DNA of 32,000 nt from Candidatus Iainarchaeum sp. (GTDB taxonomy: Archaea; Iainarchaeota; Iainarchaeia; Iainarchaeales; JACQJH01). Each line of letters begins with the position of its first letter. Position 1 is the stretch's first letter. The position numbers and the translations under genes are program-made. Of the stretch, positions 2,719-29,903 are shown in pieces. Under the pieces are notes generated by a model, which was not told the origin of the DNA, did no database searches, and saw nothing but the letters and a program-made list of their open reading frames with translations. The stretch lies in NCBI GenBank assembly GCA_016205145.1, contig JACQJH010000002.1:180001-212000 (forward strand). Direction: 5' to 3'.

Positions 2719-4119
2719 TTACAACACATCCCGCACGTCGACAACCTTGCCGTTTACGGCCGCGGCCGCAACCATTGCCGGGCTCATAAGCAATGTCCTG
2801 CCTTCGGGGGAACCCTGCCTGCCGATGAAATTGCGGTTGCTCGAGCTCGCACAAATCTCGCGGCCTTTGAGCTTGTCCGGGTTCATGCCGAGGCACATCG
2901 AACAGCCCGCGCCGCGCCATTGGAAGCCAGCCGCCTCAAAGATTTTGTCAAGGCCTTCCTTTTCGGCCTGCGCCTTCACCATCTGCGAACCGGGAACGAC
3001 CATTGCCCTGACGTGTGATGCGACTTTTTTCCCTTTCACGATTTTTGCGGCTTCCCTCAAATCGGATATGCGGCTGTTCGTGCACGAGCCGATGAACGCA
3101 ACGTCGATTTTCGTGCCCTCGATTGCCTGTCCCGCCTCAAAGCCCATGTGCTTCAAGGCTTGTTCCGCGGTCTTTTCATCCCCGCCGGCTGATTTGGGGG
3201 AAGGAATTTTTTCAGACACTTTCATTGCCTGGCCAGGATTTATGCCCCAGGTAACCATAGGCTCCAATTCTGAGGCGTTGATTTTGACAATATCGTCGTA
3301 CTTGGCGTTTTTGTCCGACGCAATGGTTTTCCAGAATTTCACCGCGTTTTCCCACGCCCCGCCTTTGGGCGCAAACGGCCTGCCATTGATGTAATCAAAG
3401 GTCGTCTGGTCCGGGTTGACATATCCTGCACGCGCTCCGCCTTCAATTGACATGTTGCAGACCGACATCCGTTCCTCCATTGTCATGGCATCAAACGCGC
3501 TCCCGGCATACTCGTACGCAAAACCTATTCCGCCGTTGACGCCGAGCATGCGGATTATTTCAAGAATAACGTCTTTCGAGTAAACGCCTTTTGGCAGTTT
3601 TCCGTTGACTTCAATCCTGCGGAGTTTCGGCTTCTGGATGAACATGCATTGGGAAGCGAGAACGTCGCGCACCTGGCTTGTCCCTATGCCAAACGCAATC
3701 GAGCCGAAAGCGCCGTGCGTTGAAGTGTGCGAGTCGCCGCACGCAATGCTCATGCCCGGCTGTGTGAGGCCGAGTTCGGGGCCGATGACATGCACTATGC
3801 CCTGCCTGCCCGAGCCGAGGCTGTACAATTCAATGCCAAACTCCCTGCAGTTTTTTTCCAATGCGGAAAGCATTGCCTCCGCAAGCGGGTCGGACAGCGG
3901 CCGCGTGGTTTCATCCGTGGGCACGATGTGGTCGGCCGTCGCAAATGTGAGCTTCGGATACGCGACCTTCAGGCCTTTTTCGCGCACCATCTGGAACGCC
4001 TGGGGCGAAGTAACCTCGTGAATCAAATGCAATCCGATGAATAACTGGGAATTGCCGTCCGGAAGCCTGCGCACTTCATGCATTTTCCAGACCTTGTCAA
4101 GCAATGTGCCATCGCTCAT
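2719..4119 (-). CDS. leuC: 3-isopropylmalate dehydratase large subunit (aconitase family, bacterial type)
   Basis: Motifs [25 protein letters not shown] and CSMCLGMN (Fe-S ligands). I chose the ATG at 4119 because GGTGA lies 6 nt upstream; the track start at 4146 is TTG. Confidence 0.92.
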
Positions 4120-5768: not shown

Positions 5769-5784
5769 TTTTTGGCATTTTATT
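5769..5784 (-). promoter_or_regulatory. TATA-like 16-mer AATAAAATGCCAAAAA, 46-61 nt upstream of the leuA ATG
   Basis: An identical 16-mer occurs at 9619-9634 upstream of nadE. It is A/T-rich and at a distance compatible with a ~30-nt leader containing the SD. Confidence 0.4.
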
Positions 5785-7052: not shown

Positions 7053-7370
7053 CTAAAAATCTTTAAATAATCGTTTGCCCAAATCCAGAACCCTACCATG
7101 CACTGCCAAAACGCCTTCGCGTGCAAGCAAACGCCGCTTCACCTTGGCGCCTTTCGCAAACCCGCCCAGCCCACCATCCGATTTAATGACGCGGTGGCAG
7201 GGAACGTGCGGCATGCCGGGACTTTTGTTCAAGGCGTTGCCCACTGCCCTGAACGCAGCCGGATTTCCAACAGCTTTTGCTATTCCGGCGTACGTGGAAA
7301 CCTTTCCAGCGGGAATTTTCTTGCACGCATTCCACACCTTTTCCTGAAAGGTTTGTTTTTTCGCCTCCAT
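7053..7370 (-). CDS. ogt: Methylated-DNA-protein-cysteine methyltransferase, single (C-terminal) domain
   Basis: 105 aa from the ATG at 7370, 1 nt after the nadD stop. Contains the IPAGKVSTYAGIA helix-turn-helix and the PCHRVI active-site cysteine motif. The longer track ORF to 7463 would overlap nadD. Confidence 0.8.
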   Translation of the reverse strand: MEAKKQTFQEKVWNACKKIPAGKVSTYAGIAKAVGNPAAFRAVGNALNKSPGMPHVPCHRVIKSDGGLGGFAKGAKVKRRLLAREGVLAVHGRVLDLGKRLFKDF

Positions 7371-7371
7371 T

Positions 7372-7884
7372 TCAATCACGATAAAGCTTTTTCGCGAGAA
7401 TGAATTTTTCAACCGCTTCCGGCACAAGCCCTTCAAGCGGCAGGCCCTTTTTTGCAAGCGCACGAATCCTTGTGCTGTTCAGATTCCCGCCGAAATCAGG
7501 CACGACGCACACGGAAATTTTTTTCAACAGGGCTTTTGCATTTTTCCAACGATGCAATTGCCGCTTGGTTTTTGTGCTCACGACAAAAATGAATTCATGT
7601 TCCGGAAATTTTTTCAGCAGAAAATCTACCAAGTCAAGCGTATGGCTTGTCCTGTTCCTGATTTCAAAATCCTTGACCTTGAATTTTGCGTTTGCCTTTG
7701 CCGCAAGGCGGAGCATGGCAAGCCTGTGCTTTGGAAGAGAGGGCTGCCTTTTCTTCCACGGGTTCCTGAAAGCGGGAACAAACCACAATTCGTCGGCGCG
7801 CGTCTTCTTCAGCGCGGCCTTTGCCGCGGCCAGATGCCCGTTGTGCACAGGATCGAAGGTTCCGCCGAACAGCGCGATTTTCAT
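7372..7884 (-). CDS. nadD: Nicotinate/nicotinamide mononucleotide adenylyltransferase, bacterial NadD type
   Basis: 170 aa with GGTFDPVHNGH (the (H/T)xGH motif) and a C-terminal LNSTRIR (ISSTxIR-like). ATGA start/stop overlap with nadC. Confidence 0.85.
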   Translation of the reverse strand: MKIALFGGTFDPVHNGHLAAAKAALKKTRADELWFVPAFRNPWKKRQPSLPKHRLAMLRLAAKANAKFKVKDFEIRNRTSHTLDLVDFLLKKFPEHEFIFVVSTKTKRQLHRWKNAKALLKKISVCVVPDFGGNLNSTRIRALAKKGLPLEGLVPEAVEKFILAKKLYRD

Positions 7885-8732
7885 TCCATCCCCTGGCCCG
7901 CTTTAACCACTTGAAGGGAGAAATCAATTGACTTTGCACCGGTTGTCAGGCAGCCCATTGAAATGAAATCCGGCCCTGCGGCGGCAAACTCTTTCAGGTT
8001 CTTGAAATTTATGCCACCGGAAAGCTCGATTTTTGCGTTTGAAATTTTTCGGAGTTCCGCAACGGTTTCCTTCGCATTCTCCGCAGAAAAATTGTCAAGC
8101 AGAATCATGTCGGGGCCCAGTCCTGCCGCGGAAACCGCCTCTTCGCGGGACGAAACTTCTATTTCAATCGTCTTTGACGCGCCGTATTTCTGCCTTGCCG
8201 CAAAAACCGCGGCACCGGCATCGGAAAAAAATCCGAGATGGTTGTCCTTGAGCAGGACGAATTCGGAGAGGTTTTTCCTGTGCGGCCAGATGCCTGCAAC
8301 TTCGGCGGCCTTCTTGTCGAACAGGTTGAAGCCGGGCATTGTCTTGCGCGTAAGGGCGGGCATCGCCTTCGAACCCGTTCCTGCGGCAACGCGTTTTGCC
8401 TTTGCGCAGGCGGTTGCCACGCCGGACATCCTGCCCAAAACATTGAGCGCGGCCCTTTCAACCCCAAGGATGTTGGTGTTGAGGCCGGTTATTTCCGCGA
8501 CAACTTTTCCGGATGAAATCTTCTGTCCGTCCTTCGCCTTCGCCGCAAAAACAAGTTTTTTTGATTCGAAGAGGAACCGCGCTTCCTCCAGGCCGGCTAG
8601 AACGCATGGCTGCCTGCAGGTTATCTGCGCCGTGCAAAGCCTTTCGTTCAGCAGCGCGGATGAAACGTCCCCGCTTCCTATGTCGTCCTTCAGCAATGAG
8701 GACAGTTTTTCCTGCATTTCCTCGGAAAGCAT
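7881..8732 (-). CDS. nadC: Nicotinate-nucleotide (quinolinate) pyrophosphorylase
   Basis: N-terminal LKDDIGSGDVSS and a C-terminal TIEIEVSS...MILLDNF...ELSGGI typical of QPRTase. The ATG at 8732 has GGTG 7 nt upstream; the track start at 8777 is TTG. Confidence 0.85.
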   Translation of the reverse strand: MLSEEMQEKLSSLLKDDIGSGDVSSALLNERLCTAQITCRQPCVLAGLEEARFLFESKKLVFAAKAKDGQKISSGKVVAEITGLNTNILGVERAALNVLGRMSGVATACAKAKRVAAGTGSKAMPALTRKTMPGFNLFDKKAAEVAGIWPHRKNLSEFVLLKDNHLGFFSDAGAAVFAARQKYGASKTIEIEVSSREEAVSAAGLGPDMILLDNFSAENAKETVAELRKISNAKIELSGGINFKNLKEFAAAGPDFISMGCLTTGAKSIDFSLQVVKAGQGME

Positions 8733-8777
8733 TTTCGGCACCGGAAAAAACCAACTGCAAAAACAAAATCCAGACAA

Positions 8778-9533
8778 TCAAATTTTGACGATGAACGGGA
8801 ACGCGAGCTTGTGCGCGTTCAGCCTGTTGCGTTCGAGCACCCGCTCCACAAGTTCCGGGGAAAACTTTTTTTTCACTTCCGCTGCGGGCCGCTTTTCGTC
8901 AAACAATGCGGTGAGGATTTTGTCCAGCTCGGAGTAAGGCGCGCCCAGTTCGCCTTCATCGGTCTGGCCGTCCCACAGGCCCGCGCTCGGCGCCTTTGAA
9001 ATTATTTTTTGCGGCAGGTCCACTGCTTTTGCGACTGCGAAAACCTGCGTCTTGTAAAGCGATGCAATCGGCAGGATGTCGCATCCGAGGTCGCCGTATT
9101 TTGTGGCATATCCAAGCAGGGCCTCGCTCCTGTTGCCGGTTCCTGCGACAAGCGCGTTGTGCGCGTTCGCGAAATTGTAAAGGCAGGCCATCCTGACGCG
9201 TGCCGCAACGTTTGCCTTCGAAATCCCGGTCTGCTTCCACGGCAGTTTTTCAAATTCCCCTGCCGCCCCGCCGATTTCAAAGAGTTCGCACCGCATTCCA
9301 AGGGTTTTTGCAAGTTCCATTGCATCTTCAACATTGGCGCGGTCCCTGCCCCTGTCCACGGGCAGTATGATGCCGGAAACGTTTTCTTTTCCGAGCGCGT
9401 CAACAAGGATTTTTGCGACAAGGCTCGAGTCGATGCCGCCGGAAAGGCCGACAACCGCGTTCCTTGCGCCGGCTTCGGTGAAATACAACTTTGTTTCCGA
9501 AACAATCCTGCCGAACAACCCGGATTCATCCAT
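8778..9533 (-). CDS. nadE: NH3-dependent NAD+ synthetase
   Basis: 251 aa with the GLSGGIDSS PP-loop and the TGNRSEALLGYATKYGD motif. GGTGG lies 6 nt upstream of the ATG. Confidence 0.9.
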   Translation of the reverse strand: MDESGLFGRIVSETKLYFTEAGARNAVVGLSGGIDSSLVAKILVDALGKENVSGIILPVDRGRDRANVEDAMELAKTLGMRCELFEIGGAAGEFEKLPWKQTGISKANVAARVRMACLYNFANAHNALVAGTGNRSEALLGYATKYGDLGCDILPIASLYKTQVFAVAKAVDLPQKIISKAPSAGLWDGQTDEGELGAPYSELDKILTALFDEKRPAAEVKKKFSPELVERVLERNRLNAHKLAFPFIVKI

Positions 9534-9571: not shown

Positions 9572-9583
9572 GGTTTTAAATAT
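9572..9583 (-). promoter_or_regulatory. TATA-like element (ATATTTAAAACC) 40-50 nt upstream of the nadE ATG
   Basis: A/T-rich box. The predicted leader of ~17 nt would contain the GGTGG SD. Confidence 0.4.
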
Positions 9584-9594
9584 TCAAAATTTGC

Positions 9595-9607
9595 GGACAA
9601 TTTGTCC
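9595..9607. promoter_or_regulatory. Perfect 6-1-6 palindrome GGACAATTTGTCC upstream of nadE (candidate operator)
   Basis: Read directly from the sequence. It lies 12 nt upstream of the TATA-like box in gene sense. It is near-identical to GGCCAATTTGGCC at 28763-28775. Confidence 0.4.
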
Positions 9608-9618
9608 TGAAAAGGCGC

Positions 9619-9639
9619 TTTTTGGCATTTTATTGGCCA
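9619..9639 (-). repeat. Motif TGGCCAATAAAATGCCAAAAA (contains the 12-mer TGGCCAATAAAA and the 16-mer shared with leuA upstream)
   Basis: Exact 12-mer copies also occur at 12221-12232 (-) and 28771-28782 (+). An exact 16-mer copy occurs at 5769-5784. Confidence 0.5.
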
Positions 9640-10940: not shown

Positions 10941-10992
10941 TTACTCCCCAATTAAATTAGTGCAAACAAAAAAATTGGCCGGTGGACAAAAC

Positions 10993-11610
10993 GTGATAAT
11001 AATAATTTCGGGTTTCGCGGGTTCGGGCAAAAGCACGCTCGCGGAAAAGCTTGCCTCGCACTTCAAGCTGAAATGCGTGCATGCCTCGGGCATACTCAAA
11101 CAGCTCAGGGAAAAAAGCATCGACGACATCCGTGCCGAAAAGGCGGAAAAAGGCACGGGCTTCTGGGAAGGCGCCGGCGGAGAAGGCATGATGAAAGCGC
11201 GCCAGGAAAACGGCGGCATGGACCGGCAGCTCGACAAGAAACTGCTGGAAATAATCGAAGCCGGGAACGTAGTGCTCGACTCGAAGACAATGGGCTACCT
11301 GAGCGGCAAGGGCATCAAGGTATGGCTCGATGCGAGCCTGGAAACGCGCGCGAAAAGGGTTGCGGAAAGGGACGGCCTGGACGCAAAGGCCGTGAAGGAA
11401 AAGCTTGCGAAGCGCGATGAAACCGACATCGCAATCTACAGGAAGCTTTACGGCTTCACTCTCGGCGAAGGCGTCAAGGAAAGGTTTGACATCGTCATCG
11501 ACACGCACTCGTTCGGAATAGACAAAACTTTTGAAACCGCGGCCGCGAAAATAGGAAAACTGGAAAAGCAGAAAAGCAAAAAAGGCGGAAAAAAACAATC
11601 CGCAAAATGA
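10993..11610 (+). CDS. cmk: Cytidylate kinase, archaeal type, with Lys-rich C-terminal tail
   Basis: The GTG at 10993 has GGTGG 7 nt upstream and gives MIIIISGFAGSGKST (P-loop). Also KVWLDASLETRAKRVAERDG and FDIVIDT, as in archaeal Cmk. The track start at 10960 is an upstream in-frame GTG. Confidence 0.7.
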   Translation: MIIIISGFAGSGKSTLAEKLASHFKLKCVHASGILKQLREKSIDDIRAEKAEKGTGFWEGAGGEGMMKARQENGGMDRQLDKKLLEIIEAGNVVLDSKTMGYLSGKGIKVWLDASLETRAKRVAERDGLDAKAVKEKLAKRDETDIAIYRKLYGFTLGEGVKERFDIVIDTHSFGIDKTFETAAAKIGKLEKQKSKKGGKKQSAK

Positions 11611-11772: not shown

Positions 11773-11985
11773 TTATTTTGCCTGCTGTTTGAGCACCAGC
11801 CTTATGTCCTCGTCGGTTATGGTTTTCCTGTTCGCGTGCTTTGAAAACTGGCCGGCCTGCTGTGCGATTTTGATGCCGTACTCTTCCATTACTTCCGCAA
11901 GCTCTTTCACTGCGCTTTCCGATACCCTGCCAGCGCCGGACTTGCGGATTATCCTGTCAACCGCTGCAAGCGGCAATTCAGACAT
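11773..11985 (-). CDS. Archaeal histone (HMf family)
   Basis: 70 aa. LPLAAVDRIIRKSGAGRVSESAVKELAEVMEEYGIKIAQQA...HANRKTITDEDIRL is a single histone fold. GGAGGGTG lies 10 nt upstream. Confidence 0.9.
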   Translation of the reverse strand: MSELPLAAVDRIIRKSGAGRVSESAVKELAEVMEEYGIKIAQQAGQFSKHANRKTITDEDIRLVLKQQAK

Positions 11986-12220: not shown

Positions 12221-12232
12221 TTTTATTGGCCA
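12221..12232 (-). repeat. Copy of the TGGCCAATAAAA 12-mer in the histone/Hef divergent spacer
   Basis: Exact match to 9628-9639 (-) and 28771-28782 (+). The 13-mer ATGGCCAATAAAA is shared with the nadE copy. Confidence 0.5.
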
Positions 12233-26410: not shown

Positions 26411-26521
26411 TCAGGCACCTCGGACAGTGTAAATGTTTTGGACTGCAAAAACTATAAATATGCCACGCCACAAGATACTTTAAAAGGCAAAAAATGCCGG
26501 AGCAGACGGACGGAAGAAAAA

Positions 26522-27610
26522 ATGCCTAAGGAAAGCAGGCGCAATGCCAAACCCGGGAGAAGCCTCGGCTCAACACTGTTCATTGTTGCCGTCCTTGCCA
26601 TCGCGGTTTACCTCGTCGCGCAGCAGAGCGGCATGACAAAAAGCGGCACCACAAGCGGCAACAGCATTCTTCCGGCCCTGGCGCAGCAGGACGCCAACGG
26701 CAGCATAAGCGTTTTCTTCTGCCCCCAGGACAACTGCGGGTTTGAACTCAACAATGCGATAAGGAAGGCGGGAAAAAGCGTTGACTGCGCGCTATACGAA
26801 CTCAACCTGCCTTATGTCATAAGCACGCTTGAGGAAAAGCAAAAATCCATTCCGGTGCGCATAATGATTGACTCCGACAACATCGGCGAAGAGCAGAGTC
26901 TGGCGCAATTCAAGCAGCAGGGTTTCCTTAAAACCGATGACAGGGGCCCTTTCATGCACGACAAGTTCTGCGTGATTGACGGGAAAACTGTTACAACCGG
27001 TTCGATGAACGCGACGGGAAACGACGACGCGAAAAACAACAACAACCTTGAAATAATCGAGTCGCCGGCCCTGGCCGCAAATTATTCCGCGGAATTCGAT
27101 GAAATCTGGAACGGCGAATTCGGCAAAAGCTCGCCAAAGAATGCAACAACCGCATTCAGGATAGCCGGAACCGGGGTCGACAATTTTTTCTGCCCGGAAG
27201 ACGATTGCGAGGAACACATACTTGCGGAGCTGGACAAGGCGCAGAAAAGCGTCGACTTCATGACGTTCAGTTTCACGAGCGACGCGATCGAAGCCAAGCT
27301 GATTGAACTGATGAAAAAAGGGGTTGTTGTCAGGGGCGTGTTTGAAAAGCGCAGCAACGACGAAAGCTATTCCGCGTATTTCCCGCTGCAGAAGGCGGGC
27401 GCCGACGTCAAGCTGGACGGCAACCCCGCAACAATGCATCACAAGGTTTTCATAATCGACGGAAAAGCCGTAACAACCGGCTCGATGAACCCGACTGCAA
27501 ACGGCAACGAGAAAAACGACGAAAACCTGATAATACTGCACGGCCAAAGCATCGCGGAACGGTTTGAAAGGGAATTCGAAAAGGTTTTCGCGGAAGGCAG
27601 TGCGGAATAA
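26522..27610 (+). CDS. Membrane-anchored phospholipase D-family protein with two HKD motifs (Nuc-like tandem)
   Basis: The ATG at 26522 gives a basic N-terminus and one TM segment (LFIVAVLAIAVYLVA). HKD motifs are MHDKFCVIDGKTVTTGSMNATGNDD and MHHKVFIIDGKAVTTGSMNPTANGNE. The track start at 26438 is TTG. Confidence 0.85.
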   Translation: MPKESRRNAKPGRSLGSTLFIVAVLAIAVYLVAQQSGMTKSGTTSGNSILPALAQQDANGSISVFFCPQDNCGFELNNAIRKAGKSVDCALYELNLPYVISTLEEKQKSIPVRIMIDSDNIGEEQSLAQFKQQGFLKTDDRGPFMHDKFCVIDGKTVTTGSMNATGNDDAKNNNNLEIIESPALAANYSAEFDEIWNGEFGKSSPKNATTAFRIAGTGVDNFFCPEDDCEEHILAELDKAQKSVDFMTFSFTSDAIEAKLIELMKKGVVVRGVFEKRSNDESYSAYFPLQKAGADVKLDGNPATMHHKVFIIDGKAVTTGSMNPTANGNEKNDENLIILHGQSIAERFEREFEKVFAEGSAE

Positions 27611-27655
27611 AAAACCAAAACAAAAAAGCAAAATAAAAAAAACAAAAAAACCTGT
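27611..27655 (-). terminator. Multiple oligo-T tracts (T7, T8, T6) directly after the nadK stop
   Basis: The minus strand reads caggTTTTTTTgTTTTTTTTaTTTTgcTTTTTTgTTTTggTTTTTT. Confidence 0.5.
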
Positions 27656-28717
27656 TTATGCCTGTTTCTTCTGCTGTTGCAGGATGTAAATGTGCTGCCT
27701 TGGGTCCGCCAAAAACGGTTTTTTGAGGACCAGGCGTTTGCGGACGAGGACGTTGAGCGCTCTGCGCACTGTGCGCGCGGGAAGGCCTGTCGCGTTGATT
27801 ATTTCCTTCTGCGTGAGCGAGGACTCCATTTCAAGTATTTTGAGGACAAAGCGCGCCGAGGGAGGCGCGTCGCTTGCCTCGATCCCGGATTCAAGGGATT
27901 TCGGCATTTTCGTGCGCTTGCCGGGCGAGGCGAACGAAAGCCTGCTCAGCCTTGCAAGCAATGCCGGAAACCTTGATTTCTGGCACGACAATGATTCGGA
28001 AACCTTCAGCCGGGTCTGGCCGTCAACCACAACCTCGCATGGCGCCGCGGAATTGATTCCGAAAAGCTCTATTTTCGAGTCGTCGCCGACAACCAGCGGC
28101 TTTGTGTCAGCCATCGAATTTATGGGCGTTATGAGCAGTGCCTTCGCGCTCGGCTGGATTATCGGGCCGCGCGCTGAAAGCGAGTAAGCCGTGCTGCCGG
28201 TCGGGGTTGAGACGATCGCGCCGTCCGCACTGTCTTTCCACAGGTATTCCGAATTCACTTTCAGGCCGTATCTCATTATGGTGGCGCTTTTCATCGAACT
28301 CATCACGATTTCGTTCAGCGCAAGGGGCAGTTCATTGCCGTCTGCAATGCCTGCAATCCTCGTGCGCTCCTCGACCACAAAATCGCCTGAAAGTATGACC
28401 GGAAGCTTCTTGTCAAAATTCTCGTAATGCAGGGCCATGAGATAGCCGACTTCGCCGCAGTTGACGCCGAAAACCGGCACCCGCTTGGTCCCAAGGTCCC
28501 TGAAAATGTGCAGCAATGTTCCATCACCGCCGAACGCAAGCACGAGGTCGACGTCAAATTCGGCAATCGGAATGGAATATTTCGATGGAAAAAATTCCCT
28601 GGCAACCCTGACCTTGACGCCGTGCTTTTGAATCACTTTTATCGCGCGCTTCGCGGTTTTCTTGGCGAGGTCGTTCCGGAAATGGCCTGCAATGCCCACC
28701 GAGGAGATTTTGCGCAT
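27656..28717 (-). CDS. nadK: NAD kinase fused to a C-terminal winged-helix (MarR/TrmB-like) domain
   Basis: 353 aa from the ATG at 28717; the track start at 28807 is TTG. GGDGT (aa 63-67), LNEIV (aa 134-138) and TPTGSTAYSLSARGP (aa 171-185). After a ~25-aa linker comes SLTQKEIINATGLPARTVRRALNVLVRKRLV...DPRQHIYIL (aa ~286-346; nt ~27680-27862). Confidence 0.85.
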   Translation of the reverse strand: MRKISSVGIAGHFRNDLAKKTAKRAIKVIQKHGVKVRVAREFFPSKYSIPIAEFDVDLVLAFGGDGTLLHIFRDLGTKRVPVFGVNCGEVGYLMALHYENFDKKLPVILSGDFVVEERTRIAGIADGNELPLALNEIVMSSMKSATIMRYGLKVNSEYLWKDSADGAIVSTPTGSTAYSLSARGPIIQPSAKALLITPINSMADTKPLVVGDDSKIELFGINSAAPCEVVVDGQTRLKVSESLSCQKSRFPALLARLSRLSFASPGKRTKMPKSLESGIEASDAPPSARFVLKILEMESSLTQKEIINATGLPARTVRRALNVLVRKRLVLKKPFLADPRQHIYILQQQKKQA

Positions 28718-28762
28718 AAGCGGATGGGGGTGCAAAAGCAATAAAAAACAGTATGAAAAAGG

Positions 28763-28775
28763 GGCCAATTTGGCC
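28763..28775. promoter_or_regulatory. Perfect 6-1-6 palindrome GGCCAATTTGGCC in the nadK/nadA divergent spacer (candidate operator)
   Basis: Read directly from the sequence. In nadK sense it lies 12 nt upstream of the TATA-like TGTTTTTTATTG (28738-28751), which is ~25 nt from the nadK ATG. It overlaps the TGGCCAATAAAA 12-mer. Confidence 0.4.
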
Positions 28776-28782
28776 AATAAAA
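28771..28782 (+). repeat. Copy of the TGGCCAATAAAA 12-mer (nadA-sense)
   Basis: Exact match to the copies at 9628-9639 (-) and 12221-12232 (-). Confidence 0.5.
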
Positions 28783-28816
28783 CCGGAAAAGGGCTGAAAA
28801 AGTCCAAATATGGCAG

Positions 28817-28827
28817 CTATTTAAAAA
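28817..28827 (+). promoter_or_regulatory. TATA-like box CTATTTAAAAA ~26 nt upstream of the nadA ATG
   Basis: The position fits a leaderless nadA mRNA. No SD motif lies between the box and the ATG. Confidence 0.45.
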
Positions 28828-28847
28828 CGAGGCGAAAAACTATTGGT

Positions 28848-29903
28848 ATGCCTGAAATGCCGAACCGGAAAAGCGTGGCACTGGCAGTGACTGAGCAGTT
28901 GAAACGGGCCGGAGAGCCCTCCGCCCCTGAAATCGAAGCTGAGGCCGCAAGGCTGTTCGAAAAGCTGGGCAAAATCAGCCATTCCCTTGCCGATTGCAGG
29001 AAGTTCGCGAAACTGACGCTTAAAATTAACAGGCTCAAAAAGCTCAGGAATGCCACGATTCTCGCGCACAACTACCAGAGGCCGGAAATAATCTTCGGCA
29101 TAGCCGACTTTGTCGGCGATTCCCTCGGCCTTAGCGTTAATGCCGCCGGAACTGATGCGGATGAGATTGTTTTCTGCGGCGTGCGGTTCATGGCGGAAAC
29201 CGCGAAAATCCTGAGCCCGAAAAAGAAGGTTTTGCTGCCGGACACGGAAGCGGGATGCTCGCTTGCCGAAAGCATAACCGCAAAGGACATACGCGAACTG
29301 AAAAGGCAGCACCCCGATGCAGCGGTCGTCTGCTACGTGAACACGACCGCAGCCATAAAGGCAGAATCGGACATCTGCTGCACTTCCGCAAACATACGGA
29401 AAGTGCTTGACTCCCTGCCCAACAAAAAGGTAATTTTCGTGCCCGACGAGTTCATGGCAAAAAACGTGGCCGAAACCACTGACAAGGAGATAATCCGGTG
29501 GAAAGGCAGGTGCATTGTCCACGAAACGTTCAGGGAAGAAATGATCGGCGATTTCAGGGAAAAGCATCCCGGACTCAAGGTATTGTCGCATCTCGAGTGC
29601 TCGCCTTCCGTCATCGGCATTTCCGACATGGCAGGGAGCACCTCCGAAATGATTGATTTCGTGCGGAAAAGCGATGCCAAGGATTTCCTGCTTGCGACCG
29701 AATGCGGCCTCTCGGAAATGATGCAGGCGAACTTTCCGGAAAAAAACTTTGCCGGCACGTGCCAGATTTGCCCGTACATGAAAAAGATTAACCTTGAAAA
29801 CGTGCTCAAGGCGCTTGAAAACGGAAAATTCGGGATAACCGTTCCGGAAAAAACCCGGCGCAAGGCGAAAAAGTCCCTTGCCAGGATGATGGCGCTCGCT
29901 TAA
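28848..29903 (+). CDS. nadA: Quinolinate synthase
   Basis: 352 aa from the ATG at 28848. NATILAHNYQRPEI, three-repeat architecture with conserved Cys (EAGCSLAE, VCYVNT, HLECSP, CQICPYMK). The upstream part of the track ORF overlaps the nadK promoter and start. Confidence 0.9.
   Translation: MPEMPNRKSVALAVTEQLKRAGEPSAPEIEAEAARLFEKLGKISHSLADCRKFAKLTLKINRLKKLRNATILAHNYQRPEIIFGIADFVGDSLGLSVNAAGTDADEIVFCGVRFMAETAKILSPKKKVLLPDTEAGCSLAESITAKDIRELKRQHPDAAVVCYVNTTAAIKAESDICCTSANIRKVLDSLPNKKVIFVPDEFMAKNVAETTDKEIIRWKGRCIVHETFREEMIGDFREKHPGLKVLSHLECSPSVIGISDMAGSTSEMIDFVRKSDAKDFLLATECGLSEMMQANFPEKNFAGTCQICPYMKKINLENVLKALENGKFGITVPEKTRRKAKKSLARMMALA

Follow-up and report, generated by a model that had tools for sequence, protein, structure and literature searches.

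Bacteria have known regulators of nicotinamide adenine dinucleotide (NAD) homeostasis in NadR, NiaR and NrtR. Here we describe a candidate from Archaea, found in a 32,000-nucleotide stretch of the Candidatus Iainarchaeum sp. contig JACQJH010000002.1 (32 kb; "the window" means this whole stretch). The window encodes an NAD kinase (NadK) with a winged helix-turn-helix (wHTH) as its C-terminal domain and carries two matched 13-bp palindromes, O1 and O2, in the promoters of NAD genes. In the openly searchable literature we found no description of an NAD regulator in Archaea or of a NadK-wHTH regulator, and the predicted regulator is apparently undescribed.

The archaeal regulator RbkR (Rodionova et al. 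2017, PMC5397151) is a cofactor-pathway kinase fused to a MarR-like winged helix; its lineage-specific palindromes lie 1-12 nt upstream of the promoter elements of genes for synthesis of the cofactor, its enzyme pocket is the sensor, and it is 'likely an activator'. NadK-wHTH resembles it in architecture, in its palindromes and in the predicted role of the enzyme pocket. It differs in the enzyme (NadK instead of the CTP-dependent riboflavin kinase of RbkR), in the place of the wHTH (C-terminal rather than N-terminal) and in the presumed ligand (NAD(P) rather than flavin mononucleotide), and the two have no sequence relationship beyond the generic wHTH. Since Pfam finds no riboflavin kinase domain in a protein whose enzyme is NadK and whose wHTH is C-terminal, it is not an RbkR.

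NadR of Enterobacteriaceae is likewise an NAD enzyme with a DNA-binding domain, a 'trigger enzyme' that controls nadA and other genes via a palindromic operator. Unlike our candidate, NadR is bacterial, acts at sigma-70 promoters, combines an N-terminal XRE-like HTH with nicotinamide mononucleotide (NMN) adenylyltransferase and ribosylnicotinamide kinase, uses a different operator and is a proven NAD-dependent repressor; in the window protein Pfam finds NAD_kinase domains and a weak wHTH only. NrtR (PMC2330246) has an enzyme-like sensor followed by a C-terminal winged helix and controls operons of NAD synthesis and salvage, its gene often lying beside its targets. Some NrtR enzyme domains have lost catalytic residues, a parallel to the degenerate GGDGT of Asgard and DPANN members described below. 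The NrtR sensor is a Nudix domain, for which Pfam gives no match here, its effector is ADP-ribose, it is bacterial, and its operators are of about 21 bp. NiaR/YrxA of the Bacillus/Clostridium group and Thermotogales (PMC2330245) is a dedicated regulator of de novo NAD synthesis (nadABC) with palindromic operators, as proposed here, but it is a bacterial, niacin-responsive HTH + 3H protein with no enzyme domain; Pfam finds neither 3H nor HTH_11 in the window protein. The best reading of NadK-wHTH is a predicted NAD(P)-sensing 'trigger enzyme' regulator, akin to RbkR, NadR and NrtR and a member of none of these families. After RbkR, it would be the second case in Archaea in which a transcription factor has taken over a cofactor kinase as its sensor.

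Two matched palindromes in promoters of NAD genes

We consider O1 and O2 likely to be operators of the neighbouring NadK-wHTH, which would couple NAD(P) status to transcription of NAD genes and of its own gene. The features on which this reading turns are the following.

28763-28775, no strand: O2 (GGCCAATTTGGCC), a perfect palindrome between the divergent genes nadK-wHTH and nadA
9595-9607, no strand: O1, perfect palindrome GGACAATTTGTCC upstream of nadE-nadC-nadD-ogt
27656-28717, minus strand: nadK-wHTH (353 aa), NAD kinase with C-terminal wHTH, from Pfam/NCBIfam, alignment, AlphaFold2 and Foldseek
28848-29903, plus strand: nadA (quinolinate synthase), divergent from nadK-wHTH, from Pfam/NCBIfam
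8778-9533, minus strand: nadE, from Pfam/NCBIfam
7053-9533, minus strand: nadE-nadC-nadD-ogt transcription unit downstream of O1, with the same gene order in locus L153
9665-10906, minus strand: rbcL, form III RuBisCO, ending 58 nt upstream of O1

An earlier note on this DNA, made from the sequence alone, had singled out both 13-mers, and we confirm their coordinates and their perfect 6-1-6 symmetry. They differ just at the symmetric third position (positions 3 and 11), as had been said. The start of O2 is 58 nt upstream of the nadK-wHTH ATG and its end is 72 nt ahead of the nadA ATG, and O1 lies 58 nt past the rbcL stop codon. The spacing to an A/T-rich box given in that note also holds: on the minus strand O1 (9607 to 9595) is followed by 12 nt and then by TATTTAAAA (9582 to 9574) in the sense of nadE, and O2 (28775 to 28763) by 12 nt and then by TGTTTTTTATT (28750 to 28740) in the sense of nadK-wHTH.

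Perfect 6-1-6 palindromes of any sequence, of which the earlier note had expected several by chance, number 15 in the window, so a palindrome alone is ordinary. The pattern GGNCAAWTTGNCC is much rarer, as predicted for a second family member: it has two exact matches (O1 and O2) against 0.05 expected, and none of 100 dinucleotide-preserving shuffles of the window contained two. A third exact match, sought by eye before, is absent from the window. Pfam and NCBIfam back the gene identities. Both copies lie in NAD-gene promoters, and two same-family palindromes at such places are beyond chance expectation. Motif scans covered the window and loci of about 20 kb from relatives. The sole match to GGNCAAWTTGNCC with one mismatch in the window (26110) lies within an FNR-like coding region and was rejected as coding. 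O2 (GGCCAATTTGGCC) coincides with the recognition site of SfiI (GGCCN5GGCC), which is of use in cloning and to which we attach no biological meaning.

The site is conserved while its surroundings diverge

We fetched about 75 loci for comparison. A profile scan of genome contigs with the full-length alignment returned nearly all plain bacterial NadK, with L001-L003 as useful loci, and a metagenome scan for the wHTH used a 9-sequence alignment. Footprinting of the orthologous spacers, as the earlier note had proposed, shows the site kept in two relatives while the rest of the spacer diverged.

Locus L081 has 78% DNA identity to window positions 26762-29254. In its nadK/nadA spacer the 20-mer GGCCAATTTGGCCAATAAAA is 100% conserved, O2 is identical, and the block GAAAAAGTCCAAATATGGCA and both TATA boxes are also identical or nearly so. 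In L154 the NadE protein is 78% identical and the rbcL-nadE spacer is strongly diverged. Despite these diverged flanks, GGACAATTTGGCC is kept exactly 12 nt upstream of TATTTAAAT. This variant joins GGACAA with TTGGCC, one of each half-site type of the window. It remains a member of the family but has lost self-complementarity, and thus fits two protein half-sites rather than an RNA stem. At the place of the nadE upstream GGCCAATAAAA box, L154 has GGCTATAAAAA. L153 is too close to the window to inform footprinting, and the contig of L145 (P0002) begins inside the nadK gene, with no nadK upstream region.

A family of related sites across distant archaea

Exact GGNCAAWTTGNCC was not found in any non-close relative. 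An unbiased palindrome search in the 220 nt upstream of each fusion gene yielded a family of 13-bp palindromes with the pattern GG[C/A][A/C]A-N3-T[T/G][G/T]CC. Six AT-rich DPANN loci have GGCAA[A/T][A/T][A/T]TTGCC, and three Asgard loci have GGCAACATTTGCC, GGCAAATGTTGCC and GGCAAGTATTGCC. Further sites are GGCCATTTTGGCC (L151), GGTCAAAATGGCC (L082), TGCCAAAATGGCC (L155), AGCAAAAATGGCC (L147), GGACAAAATGTCC (L156) and GGACAGTCTGTCC (L158). The window sites differ from the commonest form just at the symmetric positions 4 and 10.

The distance to the gene is nearly fixed. Its start lies at -56 to -59 relative to the fusion ATG in 13 loci with proteins at most 55% identical to that of the window, at -67 in another two loci, and in two Asgard loci at -85 and -105. 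A site within a 5-nt interval is found in 10-12 of 29 loci, for which a binomial test against the rate of equally good 13-mers in the same loci (325 kb) gives P values of 1e-18 to 1e-26, a very large margin even though the scoring was defined after the sites had been seen and some of the loci are interrelated.

Across 670 kb of archaeal loci the loose pattern GGMMANNNTKKCC has 57 matches, and the few kb of NAD-gene spacers account for about 20. When the six spacers of lineage B are aligned, the invariant blocks are the nadA ATG, the nadA TATA box, a GGCAA half-site, the palindrome with the adjoining ATAAAT, the proximal T-rich box and the nadK ATG. In L096 and L098, GGCAAA-type candidate sites lie ahead of the pncB-pncA-nadE operon. 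High-scoring motif copies inside nadA (L085 1871, L141 4446, L142 698) encode the conserved peptide GGMAKFA and were rejected as coding coincidences, the most likely reading in AT-rich genomes; the same reading is the most likely for a copy inside nadB (L155 2631).

An NAD kinase with a MarR-like winged helix

The window protein matches PF01513 and PF20143 at 52.7 and 86.3 bits, above the gathering cut-offs, and its GGDGT, ALNE and TPTGSTAY motifs are intact, so that it is plausibly an active kinase. It reaches none of the NCBIfam equivalog cut-offs, which marks it as a divergent NadK subfamily. In the AlphaFold2 model (predicted local distance difference test score, pLDDT, of 86) residues 1-256 form a NadK fold, 260-277 a disordered linker and 278-346 a canonical wHTH. 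The wHTH consists of helix 286-298, strand 300-302, helices 303-310 and 314-326 and a wing of strands 330-334 and 342-346, with pLDDT of about 80-93; its third helix is PARTVRRALNVLV.

27659-27886, minus strand: C-terminal winged-helix domain, residues 278-353, with recognition helix PARTVRRALNVLV

Foldseek matched the model to NadK structures with a target-normalised template modelling (TM) score of about 0.8 and an E value of 1e-27. These matches were plain NAD kinases only, of 250-310 residues and none with a C-terminal wHTH, which suggests that no solved NadK bears this domain. In a PDB profile search the wHTH is nearest to MarR-family chains (E 1.6e-4), which together with the modelled topology makes it a MarR-like winged helix-turn-helix. 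It falls short of the MarR family proper: its MarR_2 score of 21 bits is below the gathering cut-off of 27, and the domain has about 70 residues. MarR-type flanking dimerisation helices are absent from the model, and dimerisation would presumably be supplied by the NadK part.

Elsewhere in the family the GGDG motif is degenerate. Lineage B has GDDNT, the Asgard loci GSDK or GSDR, P0008 has GAGNR, and P0035 and a Thermoplasmata member (GDNAF) are likewise degenerate. These members keep the NAD-binding C-terminal domain, and the Pfam match to the N-terminal domain is often absent. Because the GGDG aspartate is required for NAD kinase catalysis, they may be pure, pseudo-kinase sensors, and the family would then hold an apparent gradient from enzyme to pseudoenzyme. 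The L096/L098 lineage has, besides the NadK-wHTH fusion, a second short NadK-like gene (232 aa, weak score), which is the last gene of the pncB-pncA-nadE salvage operon (L098 12949-13647, L096 16009-16707).

Promoter boxes and auxiliary sites

Each of the promoters has two TATA-like boxes, and the spacer between nadK-wHTH and nadA holds a further candidate site.

28740-28750, minus strand: proximal TATA-like box TGTTTTTTATT of nadK-wHTH, centre about 28 nt ahead of the ATG
28772-28782, plus strand: GGCCAATAAAA box, half-site GGCCAA plus TATA-like element AATAAAA, with a 4-nt overlap with O2; kept in L081
28802-28814, plus strand: O3 (degenerate GTCCAAATATGGC), a candidate for a weak accessory site, 3 nt ahead of the nadA TATTTAAAA box; conserved in L081, where the block GAAAAAGTCCAAATATGGCA is identical
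28818-28826, plus strand: proximal TATA box TATTTAAAA of nadA, centre 26 nt ahead of the ATG
9574-9582, minus strand: proximal TATA box TATTTAAAA of nadE, centre about 45 nt ahead of the ATG
9628-9638, minus strand: GGCCAATAAAA box, 31 nt upstream of O1 in the sense of nadE

The proximal box of nadK-wHTH is kept in L081, an equal layout is found in L147, and its position would suit a leaderless mRNA. Upstream of nadK and nadA in the window no well-spaced Shine-Dalgarno element was found, which also fits leaderless mRNAs; nadE has a GGTGG Shine-Dalgarno-like element at -7 to -11.

A second, weaker site lies about 30 bp from the main palindrome in most spacers. In lineage B it is the half-site GGCAATTTT, 30-31 nt upstream of the palindrome, and in the Asgard loci it is a second 13-mer, 29 nt from the first. 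In the window O3 lies 30 nt after the GGCCAATAAAA box of the nadK/nadA spacer, apparently mirroring the arrangement of the nadE promoter. The GGCCAAT half-sites and O3 would probably be part of the same system, although these readings are suggestive only.

Two other candidates were set aside. The 13-mer GGCAAAAAATGCC (26486-26498), in the divergent spacer of the fnr-like and PLD-like genes, abuts TTTAAAA and resembles the cross-lineage consensus; the close relative L145 has the 12-mer GGCATTTTTGCC there, and with its spacing thus altered it is probably a different element. The everted half-sites TTGGCC-GGT-GGACAA upstream of rbcL (10975-10989) are both mutated in the near-identical L153 and are probably non-functional.

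The 16-mer AATAAAATGCCAAAAA occurs exactly at 5769-5784 (minus strand, upstream of leuA) and at 9619-9634 (minus strand, upstream of nadE), where it overlaps the GGCCAATAAAA box at 9628-9638. With up to 2 mismatches it has 2 matches in the window against 0.16 expected, and it probably represents a TATA/promoter core common in this organism. GGCCAATAAAA has one more exact copy (12221-12231, minus strand), the third, between the histone gene (11773-11985, minus strand) and hef (12307, plus strand); no palindrome accompanies it.

NadK-wHTH as the predicted binder

The sites have the marks by which comparative genomics recognises operators: they are palindromic, promoter-proximal, conserved against diverging flanks and rare elsewhere, and they co-occur with a regulator gene. 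No regulator-like gene other than the fusion consistently accompanies the site, whose position is set relative to that gene. Site and recognition helix also covary. Proteins with an RTVRR helix (window, L081, L082, L155, L151, L156, L158 and L147) go with C at position 4 (GG[A/C/T]CA) in at least one half, and those with RTVRH or RTVRY (lineage B, Thor, Loki) with the half-site GGCAA; L152, with the helix KTVYNAL, has no recognisable motif though nadA synteny is kept. This covariation is indirect but specific support, and together with the linkage it favours NadK-wHTH as the predicted binder. The shared NAD-regulon operator with the adjacent wHTH-NadK as its binder, proposed in the earlier note, is thereby supported by footprints, recurrence, rarity and covariation. 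The pairing of RTVRR with GGxCA and of RTVR[H/Y] with GGCAA forms a small natural experiment in wHTH specificity.

NAD kinases are dimers or tetramers, and the Foldseek PDB matches include tetrameric ones, which makes paired reading by the wHTH domains, with bridging by a tetramer, a natural model. In it, the NAD kinase is joined via a flexible linker to the MarR-like winged helix, each half of the 13-bp palindrome would be read by one of two wHTH domains, and a tetramer could span two sites that are about 30 bp (three helical turns) apart. The sites would lie just upstream of the B recognition element (BRE) and TATA box of the proximal promoters of nadK-wHTH (autoregulation), nadA and nadE-nadC-nadD. 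NAD(P) status sensed in the kinase pocket, with NAD+, NADP(H) or ATP as the proposed effector, would then set transcription of the de novo NAD pathway and of the regulator itself. We hold it somewhat more probable than its opposite that NadK-wHTH founds an archaeal family of NAD-regulon transcription factors in DPANN, Asgard and other archaea, with the NadK domain as sensor. The protein would be bifunctional, kinase as well as regulator, in the window organism and, where the GGDGT motif has decayed in Asgard and several DPANN lineages, a pseudo-kinase that only senses; a tetramer would bridge the strong palindrome and, about 30 bp away, a weak half-site in a conserved divergent nadA/nadK promoter of about 130 bp.

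The palindromes might instead be real operators of another, unlinked transcription factor, the wHTH of NadK serving DNA tethering or protein interaction. Binding of NadK-wHTH to the sites is predicted only, and stand-alone paralogs of its wHTH occur in other archaea. This is nevertheless improbable, given a fusion gene that is the sole regulator-like gene consistently beside the site, a fixed site-gene distance in lineages at most 55% identical to the window protein, a site type that shifts together with the recognition helix, and the absence of the motif where the helix is divergent (L152). More improbable still is that the palindromes act as RNA, as a terminator hairpin after rbcL or a structure in the 5' untranslated region, or are chance matches. 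The place of O1, 58 nt past the rbcL stop codon, would suit a terminator, and the symmetric A/C and T/G change between O1 and O2 would preserve a stem. But that stem has just 5 bp with a 3-nt loop (-5.5 to -7.6 kcal/mol, z-scores -0.6 to -1.1), the palindrome regions have no Rfam match, O2 sits in a divergent promoter spacer, and neither the L154 site nor the -58 consensus GGNCAAAATGGCC is self-complementary. Chance is excluded by the window statistic and the cross-lineage binomial test.

With NadK-wHTH as the binder, the sign of regulation has to be weighed. If the proximal boxes are the TATA boxes (TTTTTTATT, centre 28 nt before the nadK ATG), the palindromes lie just upstream of the BRE. 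We lean slightly, at close to an even balance against repression, towards activator-like action at these promoters, because the centre of the site would then lie roughly at -47 to -52 relative to the predicted start, an arrangement also proposed for RbkR. The same protein and operators could also form a classical repressor, a possibility we rate lower, in which the upstream AATAAAA elements are the real TATA boxes: O1 (nadE) and O3 (nadA) would start 27 nt after the TATA start, over the transcription start, O2 would lie on the BRE of an upstream nadA promoter, and binding would be favoured at high NAD(P), closing down the pathway as bacterial NadR, NiaR and NrtR do. The earlier note had raised the use of AATAAAA as TATA box, and part of that idea gains ground. 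The leuA promoter has no other TATA candidate and carries the exact 16-mer AATAAAATGCCAAAAA of the nadE upstream box, L154 has a better TATA (GGCTATAAAAA) at that position, the nadE and nadA layouts are identical (AATAAAA, then 20 nt, then the site), and all known bacterial NAD regulators are repressors (PMC2330245, PMC2330246). On the other side, the constant site-ATG distance of -56 to -59 in very distant lineages, with a TATA-like box at about -26, suggests that the constraint falls on the proximal, leaderless-type promoter, and the lack of a well-placed Shine-Dalgarno at nadK and nadA fits leaderless mRNAs; the fixed -58 distance suits the proximal boxes.

Several points weigh against NadK-wHTH operators as a whole. 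The operator assignment rests wholly on comparative inference, part of which, the cross-lineage scoring, was set after the fact. The scan of this genome spans about 32 kb only and does not delimit the regulon (nadB/nadX, transporters). No recognisable site is found upstream of the fusion in L083, where the fusion gene is operonic after RuBisCO, in L087/L090, L150 and L152, or in the L093-L113 group, and the nadX and nadB upstream regions of L151 and L152 show no site. With two TATA-like boxes per promoter, the sign of regulation is ambiguous.

Spread of the fusion and gene neighbourhoods

Many metagenome bins of archaea encode the NadK-wHTH fusion (about 330-360 aa), among them Diapherotrites, Thor- and Lokiarchaeota and Thermoplasmata. 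Its wHTH consensus, recognition helix included, is strongly conserved (PSAKFxxKxLExEGxLTQKEIIxETxLPxRTVRRAL...DxRQxxY). A full-database search with the wHTH alone gave 408 cluster representatives; among the 150 best, about 55 are proteins of about 330-360 aa with the wHTH fused at the C-terminus. Members are now labelled 'NAD kinase', 'sugar kinase' or 'wHTH regulator', so that their annotation stands to gain, and the family is relevant to metabolic models of DPANN and Asgard archaea, in which cofactor economy is central.

nadK-wHTH is divergent from nadA in the window, L081, L082, L085, L088, L123, L141, L142, L149 (Loki), L151, L152, L155 and L002 (Thor). The divergent unit of L141 is a complete nadA-nadC-nadX-(CN-hydrolase)-nadE-nadM operon, and in L156 nadK-wHTH is divergent from pncB-pncA-nadE-nadA. 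Stand-alone wHTH homologues of about 75 aa (LPPSAKLVIKVLESGSLLTQKEIINKTYLPARTVRYAL...) occur in methanogen-like contigs (L094, L099-L139, e.g. L107 9992-10219), next to Lrp/AsnC-, PNPOx- and metX/metY-like genes and with no ATG start. They are not beside NAD genes, and we rejected them as NAD-linked.

The genome itself is archaeal, encoding TFB, Hef, NucS and histone, and its closest named relatives are Diapherotrites/DPANN metagenome bins. Downstream of nadE and on the same strand, Pfam and NCBIfam identify NadC, a NadD-type NMN adenylyltransferase and Ogt. Between rbcL and hef, a seeming gap of 1.4 kb is occupied by a cytidylate-kinase-like gene (10960-11610, plus strand) and the archaeal histone gene (11773-11985, minus strand).

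A form III RuBisCO gene lies directly upstream of NAD genes, on the same strand, in two separate lineages. It precedes nadE in the window, L153 and L154, and it precedes nadK-wHTH in the GC-rich L083, where RuBisCO spans 2864-4066 and nadK-wHTH runs from 4063. This adjacency may point to a link of the nucleotide-salvage RuBisCO pathway to NAD metabolism.

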